Counted from the stretch's first letter, positions 38,575 through 58,952 are shown. The stretch: DNA of 64,000 nt from Candidatus Omnitrophota bacterium (GCA_903860135.1 CAIOPG010000014.1:23180-87179); one strand, 5' to 3'. The notes: a model not told the origin generated them from the sequence alone. A program made the numbers and translations.

Positions 38575-38645
38575 CCCCTGATTGTTTCTTCAATAATATA
38601 AAACAGCCTACCGCGCGCGTCCTGCCTGCGCAAGTATTTTCCTGC

Positions 38646-39506: not shown

Positions 39507-40438
39507 TATACGGCACTCGCCCTGACGGCCTGCGCCACAAGATCAATCGCTTTTTGCGCCCCTTCGGTCGGCAACACCACCGTTCCGCCCGCAGGGCACA
39601 CACACCAGCCCTTGGCCGTATGGATCACCACGATCCAGATGTGCTGGGCACGATCGTCCTCGCTCACAACCGCATCAACCACCGCCTTCCTGATCCTGGG
39701 GTCATACAGCCATTCACCGAACTTGATGGTCAAGGGACCCCATACATTCTCCAGCTGGACATTCAGGCAATCCGCCTGATCGATAAAATATGTCTTCATC
39801 GCGTAAACTCCTGGTTGCGGGAACTCCTGATGCGCTGCTTGTGTCAATGCCATTTCAAAAAACTCGCTCTGCCCCGCCGCCGACCATTTGCGCTCAAACT
39901 TGGTATCAAACGTGGGCGGGATGATCCGCGTGTTCAGGTCAAACCCGGAGCCGGGAATATTCTCAGCGATCCACGCCGCATACGGCGCGTGATCTGTGAC
40001 AATATAAAGCTCAGCGCCATCAACCAGGCGATTGTTGACAAGCCGCAGGAAACCCGTTGAGAACAGACGATGGCGGGCATGATGCTTCTTTGGCCAGGGG
40101 CAAGGGAAAAGGCAATGCACACGTGCCAGGGAGCGTGCCGTTAAGAGATACTGCAGTGCCCAGACAACATCCATGCGCATCACCCGCACATTGGTCAGCC
40201 GGGCTTCGTGGATCTTTCTCAATGTTTTGATCACCCGCCGGGCGCACTGCTCAAATCCCAGAAAATTCTTCTCCGGTGCTGCGGCTGCCATGCGCACCAG
40301 GTATTCTCCCGTACCAAAACCAATCTCAACTTCGAGTGGTGCCTGCCGCCCGAAAATGGCGGCCGGGTCAAATGGAAAAAGCCGGGGTTCCAGCGGCAAG
40401 AAAGCCGCCAGTGAACCATACGCATAATTATTTTTCAT
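39506..40438 (-). CDS. trmB: tRNA (guanine46-N7)-methyltransferase TrmB with an extra ~100-aa C-terminal domain
   Basis: SAM-binding EIGFGTGEYL core in the first ~210 aa. About 100 additional residues follow. Confidence 0.75.
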   Translation of the reverse strand: MKNNYAYGSLAAFLPLEPRLFPFDPAAIFGRQAPLEVEIGFGTGEYLVRMAAAAPEKNFLGFEQCARRVIKTLRKIHEARLTNVRVMRMDVVWALQYLLTARSLARVHCLFPCPWPKKHHARHRLFSTGFLRLVNNRLVDGAELYIVTDHAPYAAWIAENIPGSGFDLNTRIIPPTFDTKFERKWSAAGQSEFFEMALTQAAHQEFPQPGVYAMKTYFIDQADCLNVQLENVWGPLTIKFGEWLYDPRIRKAVVDAVVSEDDRAQHIWIVVIHTAKGWCVCPAGGTVVLPTEGAQKAIDLVAQAVRASAV

Positions 40439-40835
40439 TGGCCATGATACCCGCCAGCCCGTCGCGCCCCTTGGCCGTCAAGATCCCGTCTTTGTATACC
40501 ACCGGGAACAAAATATCTAAGTCCACCGGCGTGCCCGGCGCGGGCTCACGGACGATGTAGCGATCCACCTGGTACGTCGTTCCCTTGACCGTGATAAGTT
40601 CCGCCGAATAAAGATTCTGCGCCTTGACCGGCTTGAAAACACCTGAAGCCGGATCCGCCTCATAACCAACAACAACCTGCGCGGCCATAACAGCCACCGC
40701 TTCAGCGCGCGTCATGCCGGGCGTAAGCTGCTCTTGCGGCAGGGCAATGACAGGCGTCATCGCCACCGGTACTGATAACGTAGCGCAACCAGCACCAACA
40801 AAGACCAACAACATCAGCATAAGAAATTTTCGCAT
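40428..40835 (-). CDS. Lipoprotein with SmpA/OmlA (BamE)-like domain
   Basis: Lipobox VGAGC. LTPGMTRAEAVAVM resembles the BamE motif. Confidence 0.5.
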   Translation of the reverse strand: MRKFLMLMLLVFVGAGCATLSVPVAMTPVIALPQEQLTPGMTRAEAVAVMAAQVVVGYEADPASGVFKPVKAQNLYSAELITVKGTTYQVDRYIVREPAPGTPVDLDILFPVVYKDGILTAKGRDGLAGIMANEK

Positions 40836-41044
40836 AAAAACCTCCTGATAGAGCCGAACTTTTTATTAAAGAAATACACCAGCCAATGCCACACTGGCAA
40901 TTTTTATTTATTGCTGGCGCGTATATTAACACCTGTCCCCAAGGATGTCCAGCACCCCGCCCTCATTCTGAACCCAGATTTCACAGGTTTGCATGGACGC
41001 GCCGGCCAGCGTTTGCTAGGATGCCTCCAACCTAAGGAGACACC

Positions 41045-41866
41045 ATGTTTGAACAGATCATTCTCGGCACCATCCAGGGCATCACGGAATGGATCCCTGT
41101 CAGTTCCAAGGCCTGCGTCATTGCGGCCAAAGTCTATCTCTTCCATAGCCAAAGCACTTACAATGACCTTATCAGCTACGCGCTTTTCCTGCATCTGGGG
41201 ACGCTCGGCGCGGCCATCATCTATTTTCGCAAAGACATCAGCCTTATTTTTGAATCTGTCATCCGGCCATCTGATAAAAATCAAGATAGCACCAAGATCC
41301 TGATGTTCCTGCTCATCACAACGGCCCTCACAGGGCTGGGCCTGATCCTGACCAGAAAAGTTGACGCGCTGACCCACGCCGCCCCCAACGCCAAGCTCGC
41401 CATCACCCTCGTCATCGGACTTGCCCTGATCATCGCCGGCATCCTTCAGCTAAAAACATCCTCCTCCGGCCGACGCACCCCGCGAGATCTGAACATTCTT
41501 GACGGCATCCTGCTGGGGTTAACCCAGGCCATCGCCACCCTGCCCGGCCTTTCCCGCGCCGGCACCACCATGGCCATGCTTTCCCTGCGCGGCTTTGAAA
41601 AAGAGAATATGCTCAAACTCAGCTTCCTCATGAGCATGCCCGTGATCTTCATCGGCAATATCGTGATGAATTATAAATCATTCCTCCATACCGGCGTGGA
41701 ATGGGTCGGCGCCCTCACCGCGTTTGCCGTCGGCATGCTCAGCATCAGTGCCCTGATGACCATCGCCCGGCGCGTCAACTTTGGCAAATTCCTGGTCTTC
41801 ATCGGGATCATCCTGATCGTCTCCGTAGCCGTCACCTTCTACAGCCCGATGAAATTCATCGATTGA
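41045..41866 (+). CDS. uppP: Undecaprenyl-diphosphatase
   Basis: GITEWIPVSSKA N-terminal motif and ...PGLSRAG... second motif. AAGGAGA Shine-Dalgarno. Confidence 0.9.
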   Translation: MFEQIILGTIQGITEWIPVSSKACVIAAKVYLFHSQSTYNDLISYALFLHLGTLGAAIIYFRKDISLIFESVIRPSDKNQDSTKILMFLLITTALTGLGLILTRKVDALTHAAPNAKLAITLVIGLALIIAGILQLKTSSSGRRTPRDLNILDGILLGLTQAIATLPGLSRAGTTMAMLSLRGFEKENMLKLSFLMSMPVIFIGNIVMNYKSFLHTGVEWVGALTAFAVGMLSISALMTIARRVNFGKFLVFIGIILIVSVAVTFYSPMKFID

Positions 41867-41885
41867 AATAATTTCCGAACTTCAA

Positions 41886-41923
41886 ATAAAAAGCCCCTCC
41901 AGGACACGAGGGGCTTTTTGTTG
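41886..41923 (+). terminator. Intrinsic terminator after uppP (AGCCCCTC-loop-GAGGGGCT followed by T5)
   Basis: GC hairpin with a T-run 25 nt after the uppP stop. Confidence 0.75.
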
Positions 41924-42049
41924 TTAATGAATTCTTAATATTTCATTAATACCTGCTTCATGACTTGCGCCTAGAATTAATGCGTAATAAATCGAACAGC
42001 CAACGCGGGTTATCTGAACCGCAACAACAATAGGAAAGGAGGTAAATGT

Positions 42050-42370
42050 ATGCGTAAAATAATTTTGACATCCCTAGCCCTCATCGCCGGTTTATCCATA
42101 GCAACGGCAAGTTTTGCGGCAACACCCAAGAAAACCGTAGCTGCCCCTAAGCATGAAGCCGTCAATACAGTCAAAGGCAAGATCACGGCCGTTAACACTG
42201 CTGCCAATCAGGTCACCATCGAACAGGATGGATCAAAGGTCGCTGTCACGATCACAACCAGCGATGCTGCTTTTTTAAAAGAAGGCCAGCATGTGAAAAT
42301 CACGCTTAAAGCCGGCACCACCGATCAGGCCGAAAGCGTTAAGGTCATTACCCACAAAAAGAAGAAATAA
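42050..42370 (+). CDS. Small secreted protein, paralogue 1 (beta-rich, OB/CusF-like size; function unknown)
   Basis: Signal peptide (...ASFA-ATP) and a good Shine-Dalgarno (GGAAAGGAGG). Shares the G-K-I-x-A-V...V-x-I...DG...K-x-x-V... pattern with the next ORF. Confidence 0.6.
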   Translation: MRKIILTSLALIAGLSIATASFAATPKKTVAAPKHEAVNTVKGKITAVNTAANQVTIEQDGSKVAVTITTSDAAFLKEGQHVKITLKAGTTDQAESVKVITHKKKK

Positions 42371-42388
42371 CAACGAAAGGACATCATC

Positions 42389-42745
42389 ATGAAACGTTAT
42401 ATCTTATCGGCAGCCATTGTTCTTGTCAGCGGAGGTTTTGCCTTTGCCCAGAACGCTGCCCCTGTTAAAACAACTGCCCCGGCTACTGCCCTAAAGTCTG
42501 TGGCTGGAAAGATCAAGGCTGTCACCGAAGCGGATGCGGCCAAAGGTACAAAATCTGAAATCATCATCATCGGTGTTGATGGCGTTGAAAAAGCCTTCCT
42601 TGTCAAAGCCAGAACCACCATCTATGACATTGCCGGCAAAGCCCTAACACTGAAGGATCTTAAGGCGGATGAACAAGTTTCTGTTAAATTCAAAACATCA
42701 GCTGAAGGGGTGCTCGAAGCCCTTGCGGTTTATCAAACAAAATAA
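42389..42745 (+). CDS. Small secreted protein, paralogue 2
   Basis: Signal peptide (...AFA-QNA). Same sequence pattern as paralogue 1. Confidence 0.6.
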   Translation: MKRYILSAAIVLVSGGFAFAQNAAPVKTTAPATALKSVAGKIKAVTEADAAKGTKSEIIIIGVDGVEKAFLVKARTTIYDIAGKALTLKDLKADEQVSVKFKTSAEGVLEALAVYQTK

Positions 42746-42773
42746 GATCATCTTTAATGTTAAGGGTACAAAC

Positions 42774-42803
42774 GGGAGCCAGCTATTGGCTCCCGTCTTT
42801 TAT
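42774..42803. terminator. Bidirectional terminator hairpin (GGGAGCCA-loop-TGGCTCCC + T-run) between the convergent secreted-protein genes and the histidine kinase gene
   Basis: Perfect 8-bp stem immediately after the 42745 stop and overlapping the 42800 stop. Confidence 0.6.
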
Positions 42804-44278
42804 CCATGCAAAGGAAGCTGTATCGACAACACCGTCCCGCCTTGGGACGGACACGCGATCGAAATGCGCCCATGATGCGCAACCACGATCGATTTGACCA
42901 AGCTTAACCCCAAACCAAACCCTTTTTCCTTAATGCCCGGACCATCGGCCCTGTAAAAACGCTCAAATACATGCGGAATATCTTTATCAGCAATACCGAT
43001 ACCGGTATCCTTGATCTCTAGGCATGCCATAGCCCCATGGCTTCCGATAGAAAGGCTTACCGCTCCTCCGACCGGTGTATATTTCACCGCATTATCCAGA
43101 AGGTTCAGTAAAAGATTCTTGATCTGAGCCTCATCAGCCTCAATTTCCACAGGCATTGCCGCACGGCAATCCATGACAATATGCTTTTCATCAGCCAACA
43201 CGCGAATATCCTCCATCACACGCTGGGCGGTTTCATGAAGATCGAACCTCCCAATTTGCAAGGCCACCTCATGGTTATCAAACCGCGCCAGGACCAGCAG
43301 TGTCTCAACGATCCGGGTCATGCGCGCGATCTGCTCAAGGCTGTCCTGCAGGATCTTTTCATACCGTTGCTGATCCCTCGCTTTCTTGAGCGCGACTTCC
43401 ATGCTGCCCCGCATGATCGTCAGCGGCGTCTTGATCTCGTGCGAAATATCTTGAATGAACCGCTGGCGAGCAAGAAAATCATCGTTGACCCGATCAAGCA
43501 TCGCATTAAAAGTTGTAGCAAGGCGTTCGATCTCATCGCCGGTCGCAGGCACATCGATATGCGTTCGCAAATTCTTCGACGTGATCCTGTTGATCGCTAC
43601 GATCATCCGGGAAATCGGATCGAATGACACCCCGGCCAAGAAAACGCCGACGATCCCGATCACGAGGATAACAAGCGGCAAAACACAAAAAAGAATGACC
43701 TTCAGCTGAACAAGATGGGCCATGACATCAGACAAAGGCGTGATCAAACGTATGGTGTAGGCAATCTGCCCACTTTCGTGTACCGGAATAATGAATGACC
43801 GCATATTGACTTGCTGACCTGGGCGCGTAGCAATATGGACATCCTCAAATCGCCCGTCAATCGGCACGCGCAAGCCCGGCGATAACGGTACGATCCCGGG
43901 CCATTTAGCGGCATCAGCGGAAGACACCAGCAAGGTTCCTTGACCGTCAAAGATCTGGACAATAATATTCAACAGCTCAGGCTTATCAGACTCTACCTCG
44001 ACCCAGTGCCGGGCAATCCTGGTAAAATTGATATTGTTGATCTTACTGAAAGCGCCGGGATGCACCCCCTTGTCGAGTGCTTCCTGTTTTTCTATTTCCC
44101 AATAAGTTTCAACGGACGCTCTTATGCCGGTAGCACGCGACATCAGGAGATCATCCAGGTTTCGATAGAGGTTCCACTTTAAGGATTTATACGCGAGGGT
44201 GCCGCAAACAACAAGCGCCAGCGTCAAAAGGATGGCGTTCCAAAATACAATCTTAAAACGTATCGAACGAAAGATCAT
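42800..44278 (-). CDS. Sensor histidine kinase (2 TM, HAMP, HisKA, HATPase_c)
   Basis: H-box ISHEIKTPLT; N and G boxes (LLDNAVKYT, GFGLGLSLV). Confidence 0.85.
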   Translation of the reverse strand: MIFRSIRFKIVFWNAILLTLALVVCGTLAYKSLKWNLYRNLDDLLMSRATGIRASVETYWEIEKQEALDKGVHPGAFSKINNINFTRIARHWVEVESDKPELLNIIVQIFDGQGTLLVSSADAAKWPGIVPLSPGLRVPIDGRFEDVHIATRPGQQVNMRSFIIPVHESGQIAYTIRLITPLSDVMAHLVQLKVILFCVLPLVILVIGIVGVFLAGVSFDPISRMIVAINRITSKNLRTHIDVPATGDEIERLATTFNAMLDRVNDDFLARQRFIQDISHEIKTPLTIMRGSMEVALKKARDQQRYEKILQDSLEQIARMTRIVETLLVLARFDNHEVALQIGRFDLHETAQRVMEDIRVLADEKHIVMDCRAAMPVEIEADEAQIKNLLLNLLDNAVKYTPVGGAVSLSIGSHGAMACLEIKDTGIGIADKDIPHVFERFYRADGPGIKEKGFGLGLSLVKSIVVAHHGRISIACPSQGGTVLSIQLPLHG

Positions 44279-44279
44279 A

Positions 44280-44948
44280 TCAAGCCCTGATCATATAGCC
44301 CCGACCATGGAGCGTTGAGATAAGTTTACGGGAATGATCCCTGTCAATCTTCCGGCGAAGATGATTGATAAACACATCGATGACATTGGTGTCCGTCTTG
44401 TAATTGATATCCCATACATGCTCGATGATCATCGATCGGGAAAGAACACGCCCGGGATTACGCATCAGGTATTCAAGCAAGGCAATTTCCCGCGTGGTCA
44501 ATAGAATCTCCGTGTCCGCTCGCCTGACAGCATGCGTTTGCAGATCCAGGGAAAGATCTCCGACCGTCAGCGTATTGGTCACAAGATTATCTTTCTTGCG
44601 GAGCTGGGCACGGATACGGGCCAAGAGTTCCTCGAACGCAAATGGCTTGGTCAAATAATCGTCCGCGCCCGCATCCAATCCGGCCACCTTGTTCTTGACC
44701 CCCATTTTCGCCGTCAGCATGATAACCGGAACCCGCAGCCCCTCATCGCGCCATCGCCGGCAAAGGGTGACGCCATCGATCTTGGGGATCATCAGGTCAA
44801 GGATAACAAGATCATACTCATTGGTCGTTGCCAGAAAATACCCCTCTTCCCCGTCAGCCGCCTGATCAACGGCAAACCCCTCCTCCTGAAGCCCGTCGCG
44901 CAGGAATTCCGATATTTTTTCTTCGTCTTCAATGATAAGGATCCGCAT
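44280..44948 (-). CDS. OmpR-family response regulator
   Basis: Receiver (ILIIEDEE...DLVILDLMIP) plus winged-helix output (...LHGRGYMIRA). Confidence 0.9.
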   Translation of the reverse strand: MRILIIEDEEKISEFLRDGLQEEGFAVDQAADGEEGYFLATTNEYDLVILDLMIPKIDGVTLCRRWRDEGLRVPVIMLTAKMGVKNKVAGLDAGADDYLTKPFAFEELLARIRAQLRKKDNLVTNTLTVGDLSLDLQTHAVRRADTEILLTTREIALLEYLMRNPGRVLSRSMIIEHVWDINYKTDTNVIDVFINHLRRKIDRDHSRKLISTLHGRGYMIRA

Positions 44949-45146
44949 AATGTTTTTCTTTCTGTCCCAATCTCTTCAATATATCACACCGTCATCTTTT
45001 CTTTGCGCCTATCCACATCCTCACCCAACTCAGCCTCTATCTCTTCGATCGTCGGCAGGCTTGATTGCAATTCTTTGGGCAAGCTTCTGGTTATTTGTGT
45101 TTCCCATTGCGCCACACCCATGGGTTTTGACAGCGTCAGCACAATT

Positions 45147-45668
45147 TTATCCTGTCTTTTTAAGCGATTCTTGATATATTTTCTCCAACTCCGGGTCAGG
45201 CCCTGTGTATTCATAAATCTTTCTTACGCGTTTTGTGGGCCCAGCGTTGCAATCTCCCTCTTGATGAACATACATATCAACGATCACATTGCCGTCTTTT
45301 TCTGTAACCGAATTGACTTCTGCCCAAACATCCAGCCCCAACGATGCTTTATGAATCAATTTTTTACCGTCATTAATTAGAAATGCCAGTTCATACAAGT
45401 CAGCGTTGCCACCCGTGTTCTCACTGATAATAACGGCGGCATCTTTGAGTCCATCATGGTTGAAATCGCCATAAACATACTTGTTTTCATAGCAAACGCC
45501 AAGATTCTCATCTTGAAAAACGCCATTCACCAAGGTAGCCACCTGAGTATCAGACTCATCCGCAAAAAAATACGTCCTATTCCCGAATCGCTTAAACGCC
45601 TCATCTGAAGCGCATCCGGTAAGGACAAAACAACCGATCACTAATATGAGCCCAAGGATTATTCGCAT
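45147..45668 (-). CDS. Lipoprotein, hypothetical
   Basis: MRIILGLILVIGCFVLTGC lipobox. Low-GC DNA. Confidence 0.45.
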   Translation of the reverse strand: MRIILGLILVIGCFVLTGCASDEAFKRFGNRTYFFADESDTQVATLVNGVFQDENLGVCYENKYVYGDFNHDGLKDAAVIISENTGGNADLYELAFLINDGKKLIHKASLGLDVWAEVNSVTEKDGNVIVDMYVHQEGDCNAGPTKRVRKIYEYTGPDPELEKIYQESLKKTG

Positions 45669-46330
45669 ATAAAAATATGATGATGGTCTTTTGTGATCCA
45701 GTGTCCCTTGGTGCATTGGATCTTGGGTTTGAAAACTTTTCTATCTTTAGCGCTGGCATCAGCCGGAGATTTCTTTACAAACTCATCCTGATACCGCAGG
45801 GTCTTTGTGACGTAGTTTTTAATCTCGATAATTCTTTCTGCTTTAACCCCGGCTGCTTTCAAAAAGGTTTTAACATCATCCCAAAAAGCCGAATTCTTTC
45901 CGGCCTTTTGCGTGAGTTGTTGAGCTTTGGCAATAGGTGTGGGGCCAGCGTTATATGCGGCAAGATCAAATTTCTCACGTTCAACAAGATCAGCCACCGG
46001 GACTGTGCGTACTTTTGCTGTCAGGATCGTTTCTTTGGAGAATCCATAATCAATATCAAAACGCTGGTCGTTTGCTTTAGACACAGTTAAACCGTATCGT
46101 TCCGCCGTTACTTTGTCAAAATGGAATTCTCCGGCAGCCTTGATAGTACCTCGGGTTCTTAATGAATCACCAAAGTTGCTTTCTTTCGCGTAAACAGCTT
46201 CCAATGTATGAACATCCAAAGCATCATTATGGTCAAAATAGGTGGAAGCATTCTCAAGAGCCTGACGAATATGCTCGTTTTTATTTTCCCGGTCAATCCA
46301 AATGTCAACATCGCTTGGTTTCTTGGGCAT
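45659..46330 (-). CDS. Lytic transglycosylase (SLT-domain)-like protein
   Basis: EAVYAKESNFGD...AAGEFHF resembles the SLT catalytic ES-x-F and AxG[LM]MQ motifs. Low GC. Confidence 0.5.
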   Translation of the reverse strand: MPKKPSDVDIWIDRENKNEHIRQALENASTYFDHNDALDVHTLEAVYAKESNFGDSLRTRGTIKAAGEFHFDKVTAERYGLTVSKANDQRFDIDYGFSKETILTAKVRTVPVADLVEREKFDLAAYNAGPTPIAKAQQLTQKAGKNSAFWDDVKTFLKAAGVKAERIIEIKNYVTKTLRYQDEFVKKSPADASAKDRKVFKPKIQCTKGHWITKDHHHIFICE

Positions 46331-46345
46331 AGAGGAAATCCTTTC

Positions 46346-47077
46346 TTATTTAAGAAGTCTTAGATAATCCATCTGCGTTTCCAGAACAGCCCGGGCGATC
46401 AATGTAATGAAGTCTTTGTCGTCAGTGTGCGCCTTTTCCAGCGAAGCGATGTAATCCCGGCGAATAACTGGTGGAATAATGACGATGTTGTAACCTTCCT
46501 GAACTAACAGCAAATTCGTGAGGAAGCGGGCCACGCGGCCATTGCCATCCACAAACGGATGAATGAATACAAACTCCTTATGCGCCAGCGCGGCCACCTC
46601 CACCGGATGCTTGTCCTTGCGCCATTTCTTGATCTTGGGCATAAGACCCTTCATGAGCGCTGGGATCTGGTCTGGCGTTGGGAGCGGATACTTTGAGCCG
46701 GTGATCAGGGCCCGGACCTTCCGATAAACGCCAGCATTCTTCTCATCGATCCGCTTGTAGAACAACTTGTGAAGGTTCTTGATATCGCCCTCTCCAACGC
46801 TCTTGGCCTTGGCGAGAGTGTACAGGAAATCATAAGCCTCAGCATGGCCGAGGGCTTCGTAATGGTCCTTGAGCGGCTTGCCACCGATCGTGATACCGTC
46901 CTCAAGGATGACCTTGGTTTCGGTCTCGGTGAGGGAATTACCCTCAAGCGCATTACTGCTATAAGTAAGGCCAACCTTGTAATACGCCCGGATCTGCGTC
47001 ACCAGCTCCTTGGGCAAAGGACGCATGGCGTTGATTCGTTTTTGATGCTGGTCTATGTCGTTAAAAATGTTATTCAT
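46346..47077 (-). CDS. Fic-family protein (AMPylator / Doc-like)
   Basis: Canonical Fic motif HPFVDGNGRVARFL. Confidence 0.85.
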   Translation of the reverse strand: MNNIFNDIDQHQKRINAMRPLPKELVTQIRAYYKVGLTYSSNALEGNSLTETETKVILEDGITIGGKPLKDHYEALGHAEAYDFLYTLAKAKSVGEGDIKNLHKLFYKRIDEKNAGVYRKVRALITGSKYPLPTPDQIPALMKGLMPKIKKWRKDKHPVEVAALAHKEFVFIHPFVDGNGRVARFLTNLLLVQEGYNIVIIPPVIRRDYIASLEKAHTDDKDFITLIARAVLETQMDYLRLLK

Positions 47078-47111
47078 ATCTCTTCTCCTAAATGTCTTTA
47101 ATGCCCCCAGC

Positions 47112-47651
47112 TTAAAACCGCTTTAAGCAATTACGACACATGGTTTGCCGCTTATCCTTAATTGGCTCGCCACAATGGGGGCAGAGTCCTGTTGAATCAG
47201 AAGACTTTTCACTTGCGTTTGATTCTACATTTACGCCAAAACGCGCTGAACAGTGTTTGCAGACCGCCGCCGATTGTGGGACAACGGATTGACACTGTGA
47301 GCATTTAAATGATGGCTTAGACCAAATATCGTTACTGCTAACAAACGCAATTATAATAGCAGCAATGCCGAAGGTGAAAGCTCCCAAAATAATAGCTAAT
47401 AAAAGGAATATAAACCCTTTGCCTACCTCTCCTTTTATCATATGCCCTGCGCCAGGAATAAAGAAAGAAATCAAAACGAGACCACATCCTGCGCGCTCTT
47501 CAATTTTATTAGCGCTTCTTTTTTCCGTTTCTGTCGAAGCTACTTGTTTCACCTCAAGGGGCTCTTTTGGTTTATTTAACATCTCTCCACAGTATCTACA
47601 CTTTATCGCCTCATCTTGAATTTCTTCAGCACACATTGGACACTTTTTCAT
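47112..47651 (-). CDS. Membrane protein with an N-terminal zinc ribbon, a TM2-like domain and C-terminal zinc ribbons
   Basis: Start [10 protein letters not shown] is preceded by a GGAGGG Shine-Dalgarno. CPMC...CRYCGE and later CSQC...CKHC / CPHCGE...CRNC cysteine pairs. Two TM helices with a GxGHxxxG TM2-like signature. Confidence 0.5.
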
Positions 47652-47695
47652 AATCCCTCCATTACGTTGGTTCTTAGGGTTTCGTTTTTCAATTT

Positions 47696-48421
47696 TTAAA
47701 ATAAGAAACTGAGACAATTCTCAATCTTTGAATCAACTGCATTTTTAAAGTTCTTCGTTTTGCCGAGCATACAGATGTTTTCAATTGAGCCTATGTTTAA
47801 TATGAATGGTTCGTCATTTTCTTGAGCGGTTTGAATAGCTAGCCGCCATTCCCTCTGGTGAGCATATTGAAGGGTTTTTCTGAATGGGCCAACTTCTCCG
47901 TCGTAAGAGTCCTCGTCAAAATAACGCACTCTGCGGGCGTCAGACGTTTCAATTTTACTATCGAGATGCAAATTCTTTAAAGAACAGCTTAATTTCCTAA
48001 AGAAACCTTTGATGTCCATGATGACGATAAAAGCGTCTCCAAAGTCCTTAATTCTATGATCAAATATCTCATCCGTTTTTACCTCGTCGTTATTCCAAAG
48101 AGCAGAAGCGCAGAAAATCTTTGTCTTCTTGTCAAAAAAAGCTACGGTTGCGTTTAATGTTCCGCCTTCCCGAGACAATATACGATCAGCAATCAAGATT
48201 CTTGTTTTACTTGGATTAATGCAAAAGTGAACACCCTCATTCGTGTCCGTTCTTTCGTCATGCTTTTCACAAGCTTTAAAGTATTGCCATGAATTCATGT
48301 ACAATTTGCCCTGTTGTAGCATTCTCAAGTGTTCTTCTGCCCCAAACTTTATAAGAAATCGGGGAGGTATTCGTTCTGTAATAAACTCGTTACTAATAGA
48401 ATCTTTGATTTCAGAAATCAT
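47696..48421 (-). CDS. Hypothetical protein (241 aa), no family recognised
   Basis: AT-rich ORF in the island. Confidence 0.4.
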
Positions 48422-48598
48422 TTATTCCCTTGTAGAATCTACCGTCTTTGTCTTTGCTGGCATTGACTGTGTCGATGGTTCGCAAGCAATATCATGGACC
48501 GGGGTGTCCCCGATCGGTAGAGGTCCTGCTTTCGAGCGGGACTTTCTACTTTATCCGACATTTATCAGACATTTTGCCGGGCTATCCGACAACGTCCT

Positions 48599-48826
48599 TT
48601 AATCTTCTCGTTCCTCTCCAACGATCACAACTGCCTTGACAGCCTGTTGATCTCTGGTATCGGCCTCTTCATGCCGACCGTAATACCATTCTTTGTTGGC
48701 GTCTTTTTGAAGCCGGATCTCCCGCGCACCGGTTACATCAGCGAACCCGCCTTCATAGCCGGGCACAACGATATTGGCGTCTGGAGGGAAAGTCGAAAGC
48801 TTTAGACTCAATTCTTTTACTGTCAT
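48599..48826 (-). CDS. Hypothetical small protein (75 aa)
   Basis: ORF only. Confidence 0.3.
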   Translation of the reverse strand: MTVKELSLKLSTFPPDANIVVPGYEGGFADVTGAREIRLQKDANKEWYYGRHEEADTRDQQAVKAVVIVGEERED

Positions 48827-48931
48827 GTTGTTATTCCCCGAATTTTAAAGTTGCCAACCATATCTTTCCGTGGCATATTTGGATTGCGGGACTAGGGCTT
48901 TCCTGGGCCCGTTTTTTTATCCGCCATCAAA

Positions 48932-50038
48932 CTACATCTGCGCTTCCAAGAATTTCTGAATCTCTTCCTTCTTGGGCAACTCCAGTTGGTACTTCTTCAC
49001 AAACAGTTTGTTGTCCATCCCGGCCAACGCATATTCTATCTTTGCGTGATTCTTGCTCGTACATAGTAAAATGCCGACCGGCGGATTATCGCCGGTGGTC
49101 ATGGCGTTCTTCCAGTACCAATTAACATAAGTATTAAGCTGGCCCACATGCTCATGCTTAAACTCATCTGCCTTCAGTTCAATAAGCACGTGGCATTTCA
49201 GAATGCGGTGATAGAAAACGAGATCGACAAAAGCATGTTCGTCGTCGAGAAGAATGCGTTTCTGGCGCGCTTCAAAACAGAAACCGTGTCCAAGCTCCAG
49301 TAAAAATTCCTGTAAACGATCCAGAAGTGCGTCTTCAAGGTGGGACTCGCCCATAACCTCTTGGGGCTTTAACCCGAGGAATTCAAATACATACGGATCC
49401 CGGACGGTAAATTCCGGTTTATCTGTCTGTGCTTTCTCGGCCACTAATGCCGCGAGCTTCTTTTTGTTTTTTGATAAGCCGGAACGTTCAAAGTATAGCG
49501 TCACAATTTGACGTTTGAGTTCCCGCACCGACCAATTGCCACGCAGACACTCATGCTCATAAAAGGTCCGCTTAAGAGGATCGTCGGTTTCAAACAACAT
49601 TTCAAAATGGCTATACGATAAGCATGAAAGCAGTTTTTCCGGATCGGTTTCCAATTGTGCGGACGGTGTCCGCACTTTCTCAAGCGACTTTATCGTCGAC
49701 AAAGACAACTGTTTAAATTGTGCGGACACTGTCCGCACAATTTGAGGATATGCCCTATAAAAAGTCATGTAGTTATAAAGTTGCCTGCGTCCACAGCCGC
49801 TAATTTTATAATCCACAAGCTTGAGAGTTAACTCATCGACCAGACGTTGTCCATACTTAGCCCTATCGGCTCCTCGCAATTCAAATTCTGCAATATACAT
49901 TCCAATAAGCCAATTACGCAACGTGAGGCTTATATTGACCGCTTTGGCGGCTTGAGCTGAAAAGGTTTCATTCACTGAACAGATGGATTGAACCAGTTGA
50001 TCAAATGTGAACTGTTTTGTCTTCGGAGAACTGCTCAT
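48932..50038 (-). CDS. YhcG-like protein (DUF1016 N-domain plus PD-(D/E)xK nuclease domain)
   Basis: C-terminal FVDLVFYHRILKCHVLIELKADEFKHEHVGQLNTYVNWY is the characteristic YhcG/PDDEXK_10 region. Confidence 0.75.
   Translation of the reverse strand: MSSSPKTKQFTFDQLVQSICSVNETFSAQAAKAVNISLTLRNWLIGMYIAEFELRGADRAKYGQRLVDELTLKLVDYKISGCGRRQLYNYMTFYRAYPQIVRTVSAQFKQLSLSTIKSLEKVRTPSAQLETDPEKLLSCLSYSHFEMLFETDDPLKRTFYEHECLRGNWSVRELKRQIVTLYFERSGLSKNKKKLAALVAEKAQTDKPEFTVRDPYVFEFLGLKPQEVMGESHLEDALLDRLQEFLLELGHGFCFEARQKRILLDDEHAFVDLVFYHRILKCHVLIELKADEFKHEHVGQLNTYVNWYWKNAMTTGDNPPVGILLCTSKNHAKIEYALAGMDNKLFVKKYQLELPKKEEIQKFLEAQM
49653..49742. repeat. Two in-frame copies of a 24-bp palindrome (AATTGTGCGGAC-nnn-GTCCGCACAATT) inside the yhcG-like gene
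   Basis: Copies at 49653-49675 and 49716-49742. Each encodes VRT(V/P)SAQ. Confidence 0.6.
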
Positions 50039-50220
50039 ATTAAATGCCCTCATTCTTTAAACTATTCAATAATTTTGACGCATTTTAATAAACGCTTCGA
50101 GATCCGCCGGTTTCACGTCCCAGCGGCCGATTTTAATCCAATGTAAGAATAAATTCTTTTGTTCCCTGCGTCAAGGGATGATTGCGCACGATTGTGTGGG
50201 GGGCGCCAGGATTAAATGAA

Positions 50221-50252
50221 GAAAGACCGCCATAAAGCGGTCTTTCTTGTTA
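50221..50252. terminator. Hairpin terminator (AAGACCGC-loop-GCGGTCTT + T-run) downstream of tRNA-Glu
   Basis: Perfect 8-bp stem 3 nt after the tRNA 3' end. Confidence 0.6.
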
Positions 50253-50254
50253 TT

Positions 50255-50331
50255 TGGTAGCCCCAACCGGATTTGAACCGGTGTTTGCTGGCTGAGAACC
50301 AGCCGTCCTGACCAGGCTAGACGATGGGGCC
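50255..50331 (-). tRNA. tRNA-Glu (anticodon CTC)
   Basis: Acceptor GGCCCCA/TGGGGCT, anticodon stem GCTGG/CCAGC with loop TTCTCAG, T-loop GGTTCAAATCC, CCA encoded. Confidence 0.8.
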
Positions 50332-50562: not shown

Positions 50563-51801
50563 ATGCATCAACCGCTGATGATCAACGCCGGAGATACCGC
50601 CTGGGTTCTGCTGTGCGCAGGGCTTGTCCTTCTCATGACGCCCGCCCTGGCCTTTTTTTACGGCGGTATGGTGCGGCGCAAGAATATCCTCGCCATCCTG
50701 ATGAAATGTTTCGCGTGCCTGGGCATCATCCTCCTGGCCTGGGCCATCTACGGTTATTCGCTCGCCTTCGGCCGCGGCAACGGCTTCATCGGCGGACTCG
50801 AATGGGCCTGGCTCAAAGGTGTCGGTGCCGCTCCCAATCCAAACTACGCACCGTCAATCCCCCACAGCGCCTTCATGATCTTTCAAGCTATGTTCGCGGT
50901 CATCACACCTGCCGTTATCATCGGGTCGCTGGTCGAGCGCATCAAATTCTCCGCTTTCCTGATCTTCGCCATTCTGTGGCTGACGCTGGTCTATATCCCG
51001 ATCTGCCATATGGTCTGGAGCACCGACGGCTGGCTGCGCGCGATGGGCGTCCTGGACTTTGCCGGCGGCTGTGTCGTTGAGATCAACTGCGGTGTGGCCG
51101 GGCTTGTCAGCGCCCTCATCCTCGGCAAACGCATCGGCCTCACCCGGCCAACCCTGCACAACCTCCCCTTTGTCGTCCTGGGCGGAGGGCTGTTATGGTT
51201 CGGCTGGCTTGGCTTTAACGCCGGATCCGCCCTCGCGGCCAACGGGATCGCGGCCAATGCCTTCGTAAACACCAACCTTGCGGCAGCGGCGGCAGCCGTC
51301 AGCTGGGCGACGATTGAATGGCTCATAACAGGAAAACCCACCATGTTCGGCACGATCTCAGGCGTGATTGCCGGCCTTGTGGCCATAACGCCGGCCTGCG
51401 GCTTTGTGGAACCGTGGGCCGCCATGGTCATCGGATTTGTCGTCGGGCCTTTAAGCTTCTTTGCCGTCAGCACCATCAAACACAAATTCGGCTACGATGA
51501 TTCTCTCGATGCGTTCGGCGTGCACGGCGTGGGCGGTTTCTGGGGCATGATCGCCACAGGTCTTTTTGCGACCACCGCTGTCAACTCTTCGGGTAACAAC
51601 GGGCTTCTTCTGGGGAATATGGCTCTGCTCAAAACGCAACTTTTCGCAGCGTGCTTTACCGTCGCCTACTGTGCCGGTGCCACCGCCCTGATCGCCCTGG
51701 CCGTCAACAAACTGGTGGGCTTGAGGGTTTCTCCCGAAGAGGAAATTATGGGGCTGGATATCACCCAGCACTACGAACGCGCCTACACCATGCTGGAATA
51801 A
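50563..51801 (+). CDS. amtB: Ammonium transporter
   Basis: Amt/MEP family. About 11 TM. Motifs DFAGG and GxxxGR. Confidence 0.95.
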   Translation: MHQPLMINAGDTAWVLLCAGLVLLMTPALAFFYGGMVRRKNILAILMKCFACLGIILLAWAIYGYSLAFGRGNGFIGGLEWAWLKGVGAAPNPNYAPSIPHSAFMIFQAMFAVITPAVIIGSLVERIKFSAFLIFAILWLTLVYIPICHMVWSTDGWLRAMGVLDFAGGCVVEINCGVAGLVSALILGKRIGLTRPTLHNLPFVVLGGGLLWFGWLGFNAGSALAANGIAANAFVNTNLAAAAAAVSWATIEWLITGKPTMFGTISGVIAGLVAITPACGFVEPWAAMVIGFVVGPLSFFAVSTIKHKFGYDDSLDAFGVHGVGGFWGMIATGLFATTAVNSSGNNGLLLGNMALLKTQLFAACFTVAYCAGATALIALAVNKLVGLRVSPEEEIMGLDITQHYERAYTMLE

Positions 51802-51816
51802 CGAAAGGACATTGCC

Positions 51817-52158
51817 ATGCGCCTCATCACCGCCATCATCCAACCCCACCGCCTTGAAGAGGTCAAAAAAGAACTCTACGCCGCCGAGGTCAACCTGATC
51901 ACGGTCTCTGAGGCACTCGGCCATGGCCGGCAATTCGGCATCGATGAGTTCTATCGCGGCGTGAAAGAGACCGGTAATCTCCTGCGAAAAATACGCATCG
52001 ATATCGCCGTCAATGAAGCCTATGAAGAACGCACGGTCGCCGCCATCATCAAGGGCGCCAGGACCGGCAAGATCGGTGACGGTAAGATATTTGTTACCGA
52101 CCTTAAACGCTGCATCCGTATCCGTACCGGTGAAGAAGGGTCCAGTGCCATCGGCTAA
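51817..52158 (+). CDS. glnK: Nitrogen regulatory protein P-II (GlnK-type, cotranscribed with amtB)
   Basis: C-terminal P-II signature TGKIGDGKIFVTDLKRCIRIRTGEEG. Confidence 0.9.
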   Translation: MRLITAIIQPHRLEEVKKELYAAEVNLITVSEALGHGRQFGIDEFYRGVKETGNLLRKIRIDIAVNEAYEERTVAAIIKGARTGKIGDGKIFVTDLKRCIRIRTGEEGSSAIG

Positions 52159-52192
52159 ATAGCATCCGGTTTTTTATTCCGGGCGTCTCGAG

Positions 52193-52221
52193 TTGACACC
52201 GGCGAAAGAGTACAATACAAT
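52193..52221 (+). promoter_or_regulatory. sigma70-type promoter (TTGACA-17 nt-TACAAT) ending 6 nt before the FIST gene ATG
   Basis: Consensus hexamers. No Shine-Dalgarno between the -10 and the ATG, which suggests a leaderless or near-leaderless transcript. Confidence 0.5.
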
Positions 52222-52227
52222 AAATGA

Positions 52228-53415
52228 ATGTCTACCCAGATTGCGATCGGTTTTTCAAAAAACAGTGACCCTGTTGCCGCCTTTAAAGACGCGGCCATTC
52301 AGGTTAAAAATAAACTCAACGCTGTCCGCATCAATGCAGCGCTGGTTTTTGCCACAGAAGCCTACATGAACACCGAAGGCCTGGCAACCCTTCACAGCAT
52401 CCTTCAGCCCGAACACCTCATCGGATCACTCACACCGGGCATTCTCCTGGCTGACAAAGCCGAAACGCGCGGCGTTGGCATCCTGGGGATCATCTCCGAC
52501 GAATGGCATTTTGGGACCGCGGGCATCGACAAACTCAACCTGATCCCCGCGCGTGAGGCCGGCTTTAACTTGGCCAGACTCCTTGTTGCTGATCACAACA
52601 CGTCCAACCGCAATGCCGCCATTTGCTTTTACGACGGACTGCGCAAAAACAATACCCTTATCTGCGCCGGCATACGGGAAAGCCTCGGGCTTGCCATCCC
52701 TCTGTGCGGCGGCATCGGCCTCGACAGCGCTCATATAAAATACACCCGTCATTTTTTTCAGACCCGCATCCTGGACGACGCTGCGGTCGGTCTGATCATC
52801 GGCGGTGCCAGCATAACAGCGATCACCTCCCGGCAAAACTGGAAACCGCTGGGGAAACCCCGCATCATTGATGGAGCCAAAGCCAATATCATCCAGACCA
52901 TTGATAAACATCCGGCCATCAGCCTCTACGAAAATTACTTCCTTGAAAATGCAACCACACTGGAACAAACCCGGATCAACGATATCCGCCTACTTTATCC
53001 GCTGGGCATCGGCACCTCCAAAGCCAGGGAATACTTAATCCGCAACCCCATTGACATCCAAGCAGACGGTAGTATCGTATGTCAGGGAGAAATACCGGCA
53101 GGGAGTCCCGTGCACCTGATGATCACAGACAAAACAGCCTGCCGCCAGAGCATCCATGACGCCGCGCTTGATTTGCGCGAACAGCTTTTGGGGAAGACAC
53201 CAAAATTTGTGCTGGTCCTGGAGTCGTTTATCCGGCGCAAAGCCATGGGAGGCATTGACATCCCAACCATAAGCGCGATCCGTGATGTTCTGGGCAACAC
53301 CATCCCTATCTTTGGTATGTACACCCTCGGCGAGATCGCACCGCCAGGATCACTGAAAAATGTGCAAGCAACCCAGATGCTCAACGCGAGCCTTGTCCTC
53401 CTGGCGATCGGATAA
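52228..53415 (+). CDS. FIST-domain (FIST_N/FIST_C) sensory protein
   Basis: N-terminus IAIGFSKNSDPVAAFKDAAIQVKNKL...AALVFAT follows the FIST N-domain pattern. Confidence 0.7.
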   Translation: MSTQIAIGFSKNSDPVAAFKDAAIQVKNKLNAVRINAALVFATEAYMNTEGLATLHSILQPEHLIGSLTPGILLADKAETRGVGILGIISDEWHFGTAGIDKLNLIPAREAGFNLARLLVADHNTSNRNAAICFYDGLRKNNTLICAGIRESLGLAIPLCGGIGLDSAHIKYTRHFFQTRILDDAAVGLIIGGASITAITSRQNWKPLGKPRIIDGAKANIIQTIDKHPAISLYENYFLENATTLEQTRINDIRLLYPLGIGTSKAREYLIRNPIDIQADGSIVCQGEIPAGSPVHLMITDKTACRQSIHDAALDLREQLLGKTPKFVLVLESFIRRKAMGGIDIPTISAIRDVLGNTIPIFGMYTLGEIAPPGSLKNVQATQMLNASLVLLAIG

Positions 53416-53418
53416 CAT

Positions 53419-54978
53419 ATGCCCGGAATCAGCTACCCCATGCACCCGTTTGATATCACACCATTACTGTTAGGCTTAAATGTCACCCTTATCATTATAA
53501 GTAGCGTGCTCGCCTATTTCTTCATCGGCAAATCAGAAGATCTCAAAGACCTCCAATCCTCTTTCAAAAAGATTATAAACTCCTTCAATGAACTCGATGA
53601 ACAGGCCAAGCTTATTGTGAAAACCGACTTGGAACTTAACAAAGCCCAAGAAGAGCTCGACCGTCGCTTGATAGGACTAAGCACCTTGCAAACCCTGTCC
53701 CGCACCATCAGCAGAACCCTTGACGAACAAGAAATATTTCGAAAGATCGACAAAACCATCGCCACCGAGCTTGGCTTCACCCACCTGCTGGTTCTGTCTT
53801 ACGATGAAACCAACGGCTTTACCATACGCACCAATCTCGGCATTGACCCAGTCAAGATCGAACAGGCCCGCACGGAGCTCGGGCTGGATTTACAATTTCT
53901 CAGTGCACTCAAAGATGGCATGATCTTTTCATCCTTGAACTCATCTCAAAAAACAAAATCCCGCATCATCCAACTTTTAGAGAACGAACATTTTATCCTT
54001 TCCCCTCTATTGACCCAACGCGGTGTCGGCGGACTTCTTTTTGTGGGCAACCGTTACAGCGCCCCTGCCGTAACAGCCGGCGATGAAGAGCTGATCTCGA
54101 TCCTCGCCAGCCAACTGGCCCAGGCGCTGGAAAATTCACAGCTTTTTGAACAGGCCTACCACGCCAGTCAGACACTGGAAAGCAAGGTTGCCGAACGCAC
54201 CAAGGAACTTTCCATGGCCCTCAAGGATGTTGAGGATATTTCCAAGAAAAAGTCTGAATTCATCTCGGCGGTCTCCCATGAGCTCCGCACGCCCCTGACA
54301 TCCATTAAAGGCTATGCTTCGATCCTCATGACAGGCAAGGTTGGCGACATCCCCGACGCGGTCAAGGAACGCCTGGGCAAGATCAATACCCACTCCGACA
54401 ACCTTGTCAAACTCATCAATGACCTTCTGGATATTTCACGCATCGAATCCGGTCGTGTTGAAATGAAAACAACGCCCCATAACATCCGCCCGATGCTCGA
54501 CACCATTGCCGACCTGCTCACGCCTCAGCTTAACAATAAAGAGATATCGCTCAAGATCAACCTGCCGGTTGAGATGCCGGCCATTGAGTACGATACAACC
54601 CAGATGGATCGTGTCTTCATTAACCTTGTCAGCAACGCGATCAAATTCACCCCTGCAGGTGGCTTGATCACGATCAATGCCCAGCTGAACATGATGCGGG
54701 AAGAGGCAATCTTTGAAGTCGCCGATACCGGCATTGGGATCAACAAAGAAGATCTCCAGCGCATCTTCGACGAATTTTACCGTGTCGACAACGAGATCAA
54801 CCTAAAGGTCAAAGGCACAGGGCTTGGCCTTGCCCTCGCCAAAAACATTGTCGAAGCGCATTACGGTCACATATGGGTCACAAGCACCGTCGGACAAGGC
54901 ACGATCTTTCACTTCACCCTGCCTTTCCAACATAAAAATAAAGACCCCAAACAAAAAAATACCAGGTGGCATCCATGA
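53419..54978 (+). CDS. Histidine kinase with N-terminal TM, coiled coil and GAF-like domain
   Basis: H-box VSHELRTPLTSIKG; N, G1 and G2 boxes (LVSNAIKFT, DTGIGI, GTGLGLALAK). Confidence 0.85.
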   Translation: MPGISYPMHPFDITPLLLGLNVTLIIISSVLAYFFIGKSEDLKDLQSSFKKIINSFNELDEQAKLIVKTDLELNKAQEELDRRLIGLSTLQTLSRTISRTLDEQEIFRKIDKTIATELGFTHLLVLSYDETNGFTIRTNLGIDPVKIEQARTELGLDLQFLSALKDGMIFSSLNSSQKTKSRIIQLLENEHFILSPLLTQRGVGGLLFVGNRYSAPAVTAGDEELISILASQLAQALENSQLFEQAYHASQTLESKVAERTKELSMALKDVEDISKKKSEFISAVSHELRTPLTSIKGYASILMTGKVGDIPDAVKERLGKINTHSDNLVKLINDLLDISRIESGRVEMKTTPHNIRPMLDTIADLLTPQLNNKEISLKINLPVEMPAIEYDTTQMDRVFINLVSNAIKFTPAGGLITINAQLNMMREEAIFEVADTGIGINKEDLQRIFDEFYRVDNEINLKVKGTGLGLALAKNIVEAHYGHIWVTSTVGQGTIFHFTLPFQHKNKDPKQKNTRWHP

Positions 54979-55919
54979 AACGACCGAGCATCCTCATCAT
55001 CGACGATGACGAAGACATCCTTGATGTCCTGGAACTGACCTTGTCAGAAAAGTTCGATGTGGTCAAGGCAACCAATGGTCGAGATGGCCTCCAGCTTGCC
55101 CGCACGCACACGCCCGACATCATCATCACGGATTACATGATGCCGGTCATGAACGGGCCTGATTTCTGCAAGGAACTGCGCAAGGACCTCCTGCTCACAC
55201 ACATTCCCATTATCATGCTCACGGGGAAAGGGGATATTCGGGATATGGTCCTAGGGATCAACGCCGGCGCCGACGATTACCTTATAAAACCATTCGAACC
55301 TGAGAGCCTTCTGGCACGCATCAACATGATCGTTATGCGCACGATCAGAAACCTCGACGCCAACCCCCTTACCCACCTTCCGGGCAACGCCTCCATCATG
55401 GAAGAGATCCAGAACCGGATACAGAGCGGTGAAATCTTCGCGGTCGGTTACTGCGACCTGGACAAGTTTAAACTCTATAACGATAAATACGGTTTTGAAA
55501 AAGGCGATGATATCATCAAGGCGACTGCCCGCATCATCATCCAGGCGGCCAAAGAACACGGCAGGACCAACAGCTTCGTGGGGCATATTGGCGGCGACGA
55601 CTTCGTTTTTATCTGCGCTGACGCAATCGCCGATGCCATCAGCCAGAAGATCATCGACACCTTCAATGCAGTAACCCCGGAATTTTACAACGAAACAGAC
55701 CGAAAAGAAGGCTTTGTCATGGGCAAAGACCGGCAGGGGAATATCACCAAAGCCGGACTCCTATCCATTTCCATCGGAATTGTTTCCAATGCCTTCACTA
55801 AAATTACCCATACGGCACAAATCGGGGAAATCGGCGCAGAACTCAAGAAATTCGCCAAGGCACAGGACAAAAGCAACTACGTCCGTGATAAACGCAAGCG
55901 AGAAAGCCAAGAATCCTGA
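54966..55919 (+). CDS. Response regulator with receiver domain fused to a GGDEF-type domain carrying a GGDDF variant motif
   Basis: REC (ILIIDDDEDIL...IIITDYMMP...). The output domain aligns to diguanylate cyclases (LTHLPGN compared with LTGLPNR; CDLDKFKLYNDKYGFEKGD; HIGGDDFVFI compared with RYGGEEFVV). No RxxD I-site. Confidence 0.8.
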   Translation: MASMKRPSILIIDDDEDILDVLELTLSEKFDVVKATNGRDGLQLARTHTPDIIITDYMMPVMNGPDFCKELRKDLLLTHIPIIMLTGKGDIRDMVLGINAGADDYLIKPFEPESLLARINMIVMRTIRNLDANPLTHLPGNASIMEEIQNRIQSGEIFAVGYCDLDKFKLYNDKYGFEKGDDIIKATARIIIQAAKEHGRTNSFVGHIGGDDFVFICADAIADAISQKIIDTFNAVTPEFYNETDRKEGFVMGKDRQGNITKAGLLSISIGIVSNAFTKITHTAQIGEIGAELKKFAKAQDKSNYVRDKRKRESQES

Positions 55920-55932
55920 CACCAAAAGAAAA

Positions 55933-56274
55933 TTACATCATGGCAGTGCCCGTACACGGCAATCCCCCAAAAGCCGGCCGGGGGCAAGCACATTCTCTCA
56001 CCTTGACCCCATTAACAATTTTAGTATAATTGCACCATCCGCCATTGACTGGCGCGGGATTTACTTCTACATATTTTGATCCATCGTAATAACCACCCAT
56101 AATAGCCGTAGCACCCGTATCAAAATACTCTTTACCTTTATCATGGACTTGAGACAGGAACGCATATTTTGTGCCTGCAAGCGCCCCCAAGGTAATAAAG
56201 ACAACAACAACCATAACCAAAAGATACTCCATCATGCTCTGGGCTTTGGTATTTATATATTGGGGTATCAACAT
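55933..56274 (-). CDS. Type IV pilin-like protein with prepilin-type N-terminal cleavage/methylation motif and a Cys-rich C-terminus
   Basis: AGGAGA Shine-Dalgarno. The leader ...TKA is followed by QSMMEYLLVMVVVVFITLGALAG (Glu at +5, hydrophobic helix). Five Cys in the last 35 aa. Confidence 0.5.
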   Translation of the reverse strand: MLIPQYINTKAQSMMEYLLVMVVVVFITLGALAGTKYAFLSQVHDKGKEYFDTGATAIMGGYYDGSKYVEVNPAPVNGGWCNYTKIVNGVKVRECACPRPAFGGLPCTGTAMM

Positions 56275-56340
56275 TTTTCTCCTATGGTCTTATAAAAATC
56301 ACGCCATAACAATAATATAACATATCCATTTTATATTTGC

Positions 56341-57048: not shown

Positions 57049-57111
57049 AACATTCTCCTGCCAATGAATATGTTCAGCGCAAATGATCTTTCACCTGCCT
57101 TATTTTGATAA

Positions 57112-57150: not shown

Positions 57151-57161
57151 TGGGACTTTAA

Positions 57162-57344: not shown

Positions 57345-58952
<1,608 letters not shown>

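Follow-up and report, generated by a model that had tools for sequence, protein, structure and literature searches.

Among described systems, tRNA-associated integrative islands of the P4-integrase type lie directly 3′ of a tRNA gene, have a low GC content, and carry accessory cargo. Defence islands and variable hotspots are strain-variable clusters of atypical composition that contain stand-alone nucleases, Fic proteins and genes of unknown function, with alternative cargo placed between conserved anchor genes. In this study, we analyzed a stretch of 64,000 nucleotides (nt) from Candidatus Omnitrophota bacterium (GCA_903860135.1, CAIOPG010000014.1:23180–87179; the whole stretch is hereafter called the window) and characterized an AT-rich accessory block at 44952–50254, which is flanked by a heavy-metal-type two-component system on one side and by tRNA-Glu/amtB on the other, with all of its features encoded on the minus strand. 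The original prediction, made from the sequence alone, regarded this block as probably a degraded island, with the bordering tRNA gene as the usual integration target. We found that it is an ordinary kind of genomic or defence-type island with no sign of tRNA-directed integration. It is probably a lineage-specific, horizontally exchanged accessory region at a synteny breakpoint, i.e., an immobile mosaic hotspot. Its accessory, foreign nature is supported by an atypical composition, by synteny that ends at both borders, and by differing alleles of its middle module. The block resembles both kinds of described loci in the traits given above. It differs from the tRNA-associated islands in that it has no integrase, att repeat or mobility genes and its tRNA adjacency is not kept in relatives, and from the defence islands in that no gene matches a validated system and its anchors, namely a gene for a 75-amino-acid (aa) protein, an SLT-like/lipoprotein gene pair and YhcG, are low in GC and non-syntenic and are not core housekeeping genes. 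The features are as follows.

44987–45163, minus strand: C-terminal remnant (about 55 codons; dYhcG′) of a second, different YhcG gene, identified with PADLOC and Pfam
45147–45668, minus strand: lipoprotein gene, 173 aa, with the lipobox LTGC read directly from the sequence
45659–46330, minus strand: SLT-like lytic transglycosylase, 223 aa, from a Pfam SLT match near the cut-off and from motifs
46346–47077, minus strand: class II-type Fic protein, 243 aa, from PF02661, motifs and PADLOC
46388–48464, minus strand: variable module with the 241-aa protein, zinc-ribbon protein and Fic genes; nucleotide similarity to the related contig L096 ends at 48465 and resumes at 46387
47112–47651, minus strand: zinc-ribbon membrane protein, 179 aa, from Pfam Zn_ribbon_3, DZR and DUF6677
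47696–48421, minus strand: 241-aa protein of a phrog_26561-like family, possibly DUF2971- or ADP-ribosyltransferase (ART)-like, from profile searches
48465–48605, minus strand: conserved non-coding element, about 140 nt, for which three hairpins are predicted, from nucleotide conservation and RNA folding
48599–48826, minus strand: gene for the 75-aa protein, a backbone gene with homologues in other Omnitrophota assemblies
48932–50053, minus strand: full-length YhcG/DUF1016 PD-(D/E)xK nuclease, 373 aa, from Pfam, PADLOC and PHROG
50219–50248, strand unassigned: terminator-like hairpin with a 12-bp stem, directly after tRNA-Glu
50255–50331, minus strand: tRNA-Glu(CTC), from ARAGORN (Rfam tRNA, 57.8 bits), with CCA encoded and the 3′ end toward the island

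The GC content was 44.3% at 44950–50331 and 53.3% in the remaining window. The AT-rich block of the original prediction is thus real, but the contrast given for it (roughly 40% against about 58%) was overstated. The lowest-GC 5.4-kb stretch of the whole 64 kb begins at 44900 and lies about 2.9 standard deviations (SD) under the mean (mean 52.4%, SD 2.9%). The tetranucleotide distance to the window average reached its maximum at 47001–50000 (z = 4.15), so that the block is the most atypical part of the window and the composition is not uniform. We also compared the GC content at third codon positions (GC3) with a baseline of 40 host genes (0.638 ± 0.049). GC3 was 2.0–5.7 SD under that of the host genes for seven of the eight island features (six genes and the YhcG remnant), with z scores of −5.7 for the zinc-ribbon gene, −5.1 for both the SLT-like and the 241-aa genes, −4.4 for the lipoprotein gene, −3.7 for the 75-aa gene, −2.9 for the YhcG gene and −2.0 for dYhcG′. 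The Fic gene (GC3 0.643, z = +0.1) was not distinguishable from host genes. Because per-gene GC3 ranges from strongly low to host-like, the block is compositionally heterogeneous.

Elsewhere in the window, the sole other tetranucleotide outlier was found at 8.0–11.0 kb (z = 2.4). A second low-GC patch (43% GC) occupies 8000–10800, between ychF-like and uvrC-like genes, and contains small paired open reading frames (ORFs) resembling toxin–antitoxin (TA) modules (87 + 80 aa, 77 + 97 aa, plus a 171-aa ORF; translations judged by eye). The stretch at 41750–43000 (46–49% GC) encodes two small proteins that look secreted (106 and 118 aa) and is syntenic and conserved in the relative described below; therefore, low GC alone is no mark of foreign DNA here.

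The window matches a metagenomic scaffold of 104.7 kb (ENA ERZ18667937, BUCK21-1 scaffold_34). Synteny was examined from both flanks. Genome contigs scanned with the histidine kinase contained one true relative, the Candidatus Omnitrophota metagenome-assembled genome (MAG) ELA167, which is the genome closest to the window and whose contig L003 runs collinear with positions 36449–44951, i.e., up to the start of the response-regulator gene, at 76% nucleotide identity. GntR and ABC-ATPase genes follow, and neither a tRNA gene nor an island is present beside the response-regulator gene of L003. On the opposite flank, a metagenome scan with AmtB yielded 80 loci, the 12 closest of which were scanned for tRNAs. 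Contig L012 (AmtB 86% identical) is collinear with 50581–58652, including tRNA-Leu, and has CheV and MCP genes upstream of amtB; contig L013 (AmtB 77%) has panC at this place. No tRNA-Glu was found upstream of amtB in any of the 12 closest loci. Because L003 and L012 are collinear up to the island borders, these borders are synteny breaks, and tRNA-Glu lies within the non-syntenic segment.

As the original prediction stated, a tRNA gene stands at the island border, and this arrangement raised the explanation that the block descends from an integrative island: an element would have entered the 3′ end of tRNA-Glu by means of a tyrosine integrase, and both this integrase and the distal att repeat would since have been lost. 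The block begins 0–200 nt 3′ of tRNA-Glu in the classical orientation, its base composition is atypical, and the truncated YhcG gene at the far edge indicates that deletion or decay has happened. However, searches for the expected traces were negative. No integrase or recombinase domain was detected in the eight island ORFs with Pfam and NCBIfam, and the intergenic space of the island, less than 500 nt in total, is too little to conceal an integrase remnant. A copy of the tRNA-Glu 3′ end, proposed near 44.9–45.2 kb, was absent from the whole of 44000–50170, whether sought as an exact match of at least 11 nt or with one mismatch in 14 nt, two in 17 nt or three in 20 nt. An att scan of the tRNA plus flanks gave only matches of downstream spacer sequence, at 47449–47470, and a generic repeat search of the region gave only short matches at chance level. 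In these respects, the original prediction was right that no integrase, recombinase or att direct repeat is visible. Since amtB has no tRNA-Glu next to it in the closest relatives, the tRNA may have come with a rearrangement and may not have been a target, and the differing GC classes in the mosaic speak against one single element. With the backbone of the block located elsewhere in a relative, as described below, nothing beyond adjacency speaks for the degraded tRNA-integrated island, and we consider this origin unlikely.

A 19-nt likeness of 45129–45147 to a palindrome in the YhcG gene was attributed to chance, several 16/19 matches being expected in 7 kb on both strands by our own estimate.

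Counterparts of much of the block were found on contig L096, which belongs, like L003, to the ELA167 assembly and has a GC content of 41.5%, compared with 50.4% for L003. The order on L096 is a partial YhcG gene (YhcG′), the 140-nt element, the 75-aa gene (81% aa and 86% nucleotide identity), a gene for a 285/295-aa protein that belongs to no family, SLT, a lipoprotein-like gene and DUF1963; assemblies L097 and L098 share this arrangement. Nucleotide similarity between the window and L096 breaks across the 2.1-kb segment with the 241-aa, zinc-ribbon and Fic genes, in place of which L096 has a different gene; this segment therefore sits in a slot. A third slot allele was found at 1–1668 of contig L105 (ENA ERZ19031962, GROS21-1 scaffold_68250), where the 75-aa gene (87% identical) lies upstream of genes for a 138-aa Zn_ribbon_Top1 protein and then a coiled-coil protein with a C-terminal Mrr_cat restriction-endonuclease domain. 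Farther along L096, 4240–7361 encodes the DUF1963 protein, a 154-aa membrane protein and a 425-aa protein without a family, all of which are absent from the window.

These comparisons also bear on whether the block is a native, vertically inherited, fast-evolving low-GC locus of the Omnitrophota clade that arose without horizontal transfer. The backbone genes do occur in the relative at a core-like divergence (74.6% nucleotide identity for SLT vs 76% for the core), and the GC3 of the Fic gene equals that of the host. However, the relative does not have the block in a syntenic position, there are three different cargo alleles, GC3 is 4–6 SD under that of host genes, and members of the gene families are common on plasmids and phages across unrelated phyla. 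Moreover, the 75-aa gene (86%) and the 140-nt element (83%) are closer to their counterparts than the core is. Purely vertical descent is thus very unlikely.

The block holds an intact YhcG gene and the remnant of another. The remnant dYhcG′, overlooked in the original prediction, matched PADLOC PDC-S02 at 1.7e-8 and positions 130–157 of the Pfam YhcG_C profile. It is overlapped in another frame by the last codons of the lipoprotein gene, and the response-regulator gene begins 35 nt beyond it. The remnant is 52% identical to the C-terminus of the L096 YhcG′ (E = 2e-15), whereas the full-length YhcG of the window shows only 39% identity to YhcG′. From this difference, dYhcG′ is the orthologue of the L096 YhcG′, and the intact YhcG is a separately arrived paralogue, which joins the backbone about 11 nt upstream of the start of the 75-aa gene.

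The identification of the intact protein as a YhcG PD-(D/E)xK nuclease was borne out, with Pfam YhcG_C at 1.6e-54 (184.5 bits) and DUF1016_N at 3.2e-26 (92.5 bits), both above the gathering scores, PADLOC PDC-S02 at 3e-125 and phrog_22762 at 5e-92. The D...ExK core (FVDLVFY...VLIELK) is present when the sequence is read directly. It thus shares the full two-domain architecture and very strong profile matches with YhcG/DUF1016 nucleases, a family whose function is only predicted, whose members occur inside restriction–modification (RM) loci, and which is statistically enriched beside RM and programmed-inversion loci (PMC9881135). Unlike these nucleases, the protein carries about 30 additional residues, inserted in frame, in its N-terminal domain, where 161 residues align to 130 positions of the DUF1016_N profile. 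The insertion coincides with a pair of palindromes 63 nt apart within the ORF (49650–49745), one arm pair of which is a perfect 14 + 14-nt inverted repeat (AAATTGTGCGGACA/TGTCCGCACAATTT); the two copies of this palindromic duplication encode IVRTVSAQ and KVRTPSAQ.

The 75-aa protein and the 241-aa protein were called unknowns in the original prediction, yet neither is an orphan, and profile or sequence searches found families of homologues for both. The 75-aa family consists of 72–77-aa proteins, with copies 81–87% identical to that of the window in other Omnitrophota assemblies. Distant homologues (38–50% identity) occur in phage-like contigs from JGI and ENA metagenomes (L099–L103), within runs of small overlapping early-type ORFs, and these contigs also carry genes for ribonucleotide reductase (with intein and GIY-YIG insertions), a holin, an M15 endolysin, Cpn60 and thymidylate synthase (ThyA). 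The family was thus seen in phage contigs and not in defence loci.

Such homologues would be expected if the block were a remnant of a prophage or phage satellite. In addition, with the exception of the lipoprotein and the 75-aa protein, all of the seven island products match PHROG families, and the SLT-like protein has no evident signal peptide and a weak match to an endolysin PHROG. This origin is nevertheless more improbable still than vertical descent: the region is merely 5.3 kb and lacks genes for structural proteins, replication, packaging or lysogeny, the PHROG families matched have no assigned function and are found on plasmids and chromosomes as well, and tblastn with two members of the 241-aa family against 50,697 phage records returned no match.

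Next to the 75-aa gene, the 140-nt element is 83% identical in nucleotide sequence to L096 676–817, with a reading frame that is not conserved, and is also found at 576–717 of L097. Its predicted RNA fold had a z score of −2.9 for the window and −7.3 for L096, and it contains a tandem ATGTCNGATAA repeat. The element had no Rfam match, the only match in the Rfam search of the island being the tRNA, and a scan with its core gave no matches. It occurs once per locus, with no repeat elsewhere in the window, and lies downstream of the 75-aa gene in the window and upstream of it in L096. A structured intergenic element adjoining a small gene of variable position, in a row of seven co-oriented and mainly small accessory genes, could recall an integron-like cassette array without an integrase (CALIN). 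However, five of the seven spacers are at most 44 nt or overlapping, leaving no room for attC sites of at least about 55 nt, and the element is not a repeated one; judged by spacer length and the repeat search, a cassette array is hardly credible.

The closest described counterpart of the 241-aa protein in the slot is Aristaios/DUF2971, a predicted ART of the H-Y-E clade that acts as a single-gene abortive infection system (PMC11381338, PMC12522546). A word-indexed search retrieved only three close homologues of the 241-aa protein. By contrast, a profile search of 1.84 billion representatives retrieved 2063 clusters (formed at 50% identity) at E ≤ 1e-3, with 851 of them at E ≤ 1e-10; most of the proteins are stand-alone and have 210–245 aa. 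The protein matched phrog_26561 (unknown function) at 1.1e-23, as did all of the 70 sampled family members. There is no Pfam model for the family, and PADLOC gave no match for the protein of the window and weak PDC-S31 matches for 4 of the 70 sampled members. An AlphaFold2 (AF2) model built on a 70-sequence alignment was confident, with a predicted local distance difference test (pLDDT) score of 90.4 and a predicted template modelling (pTM) score of 0.85. Foldseek found no match for this model in PDB and BFVD, and the family profile matched no PDB sequence even at E ≤ 10. The invariant or nearly invariant residues are D59, E62, Y167, K182, Q189, E191 and R193.

DUF2971 was the sole Pfam family to recur among sub-threshold matches (1/70 and 7/79 members, i.e., 8/149), with none reaching the cut-off. 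The 241-aa family is similar to Aristaios/DUF2971 in that its members are stand-alone proteins of about 220–240 aa, reside on plasmids and in defence neighbourhoods, and have an invariant Tyr and a Q-x-E motif. It differs in that its members fall under the Pfam PF11185 cut-off and no ART structure was found by Foldseek, and the mapping of the motif to the ART core is putative. Neighbours of family members elsewhere include HigBA, a type I RM system, a tyrosine recombinase (integrase) with an AbiJ-NTD4 protein, a type II RM system (BsuBI/PstI-type) and Tn3, and YhaV/PrlF; other members lie in plasmid accessory regions, and the plasmid homologues are all annotated just as "hypothetical protein". 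We rejected a functional link among the three slot genes: homologues of the 241-aa protein elsewhere never adjoin zinc-ribbon or Fic genes, and the three are therefore independent. A bolder proposal would make the family a new stand-alone ART-like abortive-infection or conflict effector, a sister of DUF2971/Aristaios spread across many phyla in RM, TA and integrase neighbourhoods, and the 140-nt element a new cis-regulatory element or small RNA of the backbone; we regard this combination as speculative and rather improbable.

The Fic protein retains the intact HPFx(D/E)GNGR motif noted in the original prediction (HPFVDGNGR at residue 173) and matched PF02661 at 9e-22 (78.2 bits vs a cut-off of 24). 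SNALEG at residue 41, N-terminal to the core, places it in class II. In the 2012 scheme attributed to Engel et al., an N-terminal inhibitory motif is said to mark class II, that is, a cis-auto-inhibited enzyme and not a toxin with a separate antitoxin. PADLOC matched the protein to PDC-S04 at 6.5e-29 and to SoFic at 1.6e-22. It shares the HPFxDGNGR core, the N-terminal SxxxEG inhibitory motif and these model matches with SoFic and class II Fic AMP-transferases. Unlike SoFic, it has 243 aa instead of about 361 and covers only model positions 63–266 of 361; the SoFic equivalog (NCBIfam NF046030) was rejected for it at 30.6 bits against a cut-off of 550.

The neighbouring slot gene encodes, in order, an N-terminal zinc ribbon, a DUF6677 transmembrane segment and a C-terminal double zinc ribbon. 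The zinc ribbons of the predicted "multi-zinc-ribbon TM2" protein were supported by Pfam, but TM2 was absent among 15 Pfam matches at E ≤ 0.1; the membrane part is DUF6677 (28.4 bits, above the cut-off of 24.3). In near-identical contigs of other samples, this gene (window 47112–47717) is called as 179, 156 or 146 aa, which suggests strain-level indels in the gene.

On the far side of the slot, the SLT-like protein scored 20.6 bits for Pfam SLT, just below the cut-off of 21.3. Its assignment in the original prediction is thus marginal by score; however, it has the motifs ES (AKES) and AYNAG (AAYNAG), and its L096 orthologue (75% aa identity) scored 31.9 bits. The first 10 nt of the lipoprotein gene overlap the end of the SLT-like gene. 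The lipoprotein, correctly recognized before, belongs to no Pfam family and is 53% identical to the product of L096 3515–4144.

Taken together, the data are consistent with the following history of an exchanged accessory region. A low-GC backbone common with related Omnitrophota, comprising a YhcG-type nuclease, the 140-nt element, the 75-aa gene and the translationally coupled SLT-like/lipoprotein pair, would circulate or persist in the clade and frame a slot with genome-specific cargo. The cargo may be exchanged by recombination, for which the conserved backbone genes could provide homology anchors. An earlier YhcG′ would have been cut short when the present block joined the response-regulator flank. 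At least three recombination events would be needed: the truncation of YhcG′, the arrival of the second YhcG beside tRNA-Glu, and the replacement of the slot content. The slot and YhcG genes would encode stand-alone conflict proteins, with Fic as a presumed cis-auto-inhibited AMP-transferase, YhcG as a predicted PD-(D/E)xK nuclease, and the 241-aa protein as a DUF2971-like putative ART.

Several observations weigh against this history. No relative has the two flanks side by side, so that an insertion here is not shown; the synteny breakpoint could be a rearrangement independent of the island. The L096 contig breaks inside YhcG′, and the comparison sequences are all MAG or metagenome contigs. 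The near-core divergence of the SLT gene fits vertical inheritance of an old locus as well, and the composition of the Fic gene is native. The opposite order of the 75-aa gene and the 140-nt element in the window and L096 is a reordering that simple slot-swapping leaves unexplained. Finally, at family cut-offs, none of the island genes matches a defence system that has been validated by experiment.

The gene content nevertheless makes a defence role of the island plausible, as families found in the block adjoin RM and TA modules elsewhere. PADLOC assigned YhcG and Fic to the predicted candidate families PDC-S02 and PDC-S04, respectively, and assigned the 241-aa protein of the window to none. 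In one study in a native host, PDC-S04 was not protective. That one or more genes of the block act against phages is possible, though somewhat short of an even chance, and the 241-aa and 75-aa proteins as new defence components are a candidate idea only.

The phrog_26561-like family is widespread and combines a confident predicted structure, for which no solved neighbour is detectable, with a consistent defence-island neighbourhood, which makes it a reasonable candidate for phage-defence screening. Very little has been described of the mobile and defence genes of Omnitrophota, a phylum of uncultured bacteria. The backbone-plus-slot locus, with its three alleles, is a concrete place to seek strain-level conflict genes in Omnitrophota.

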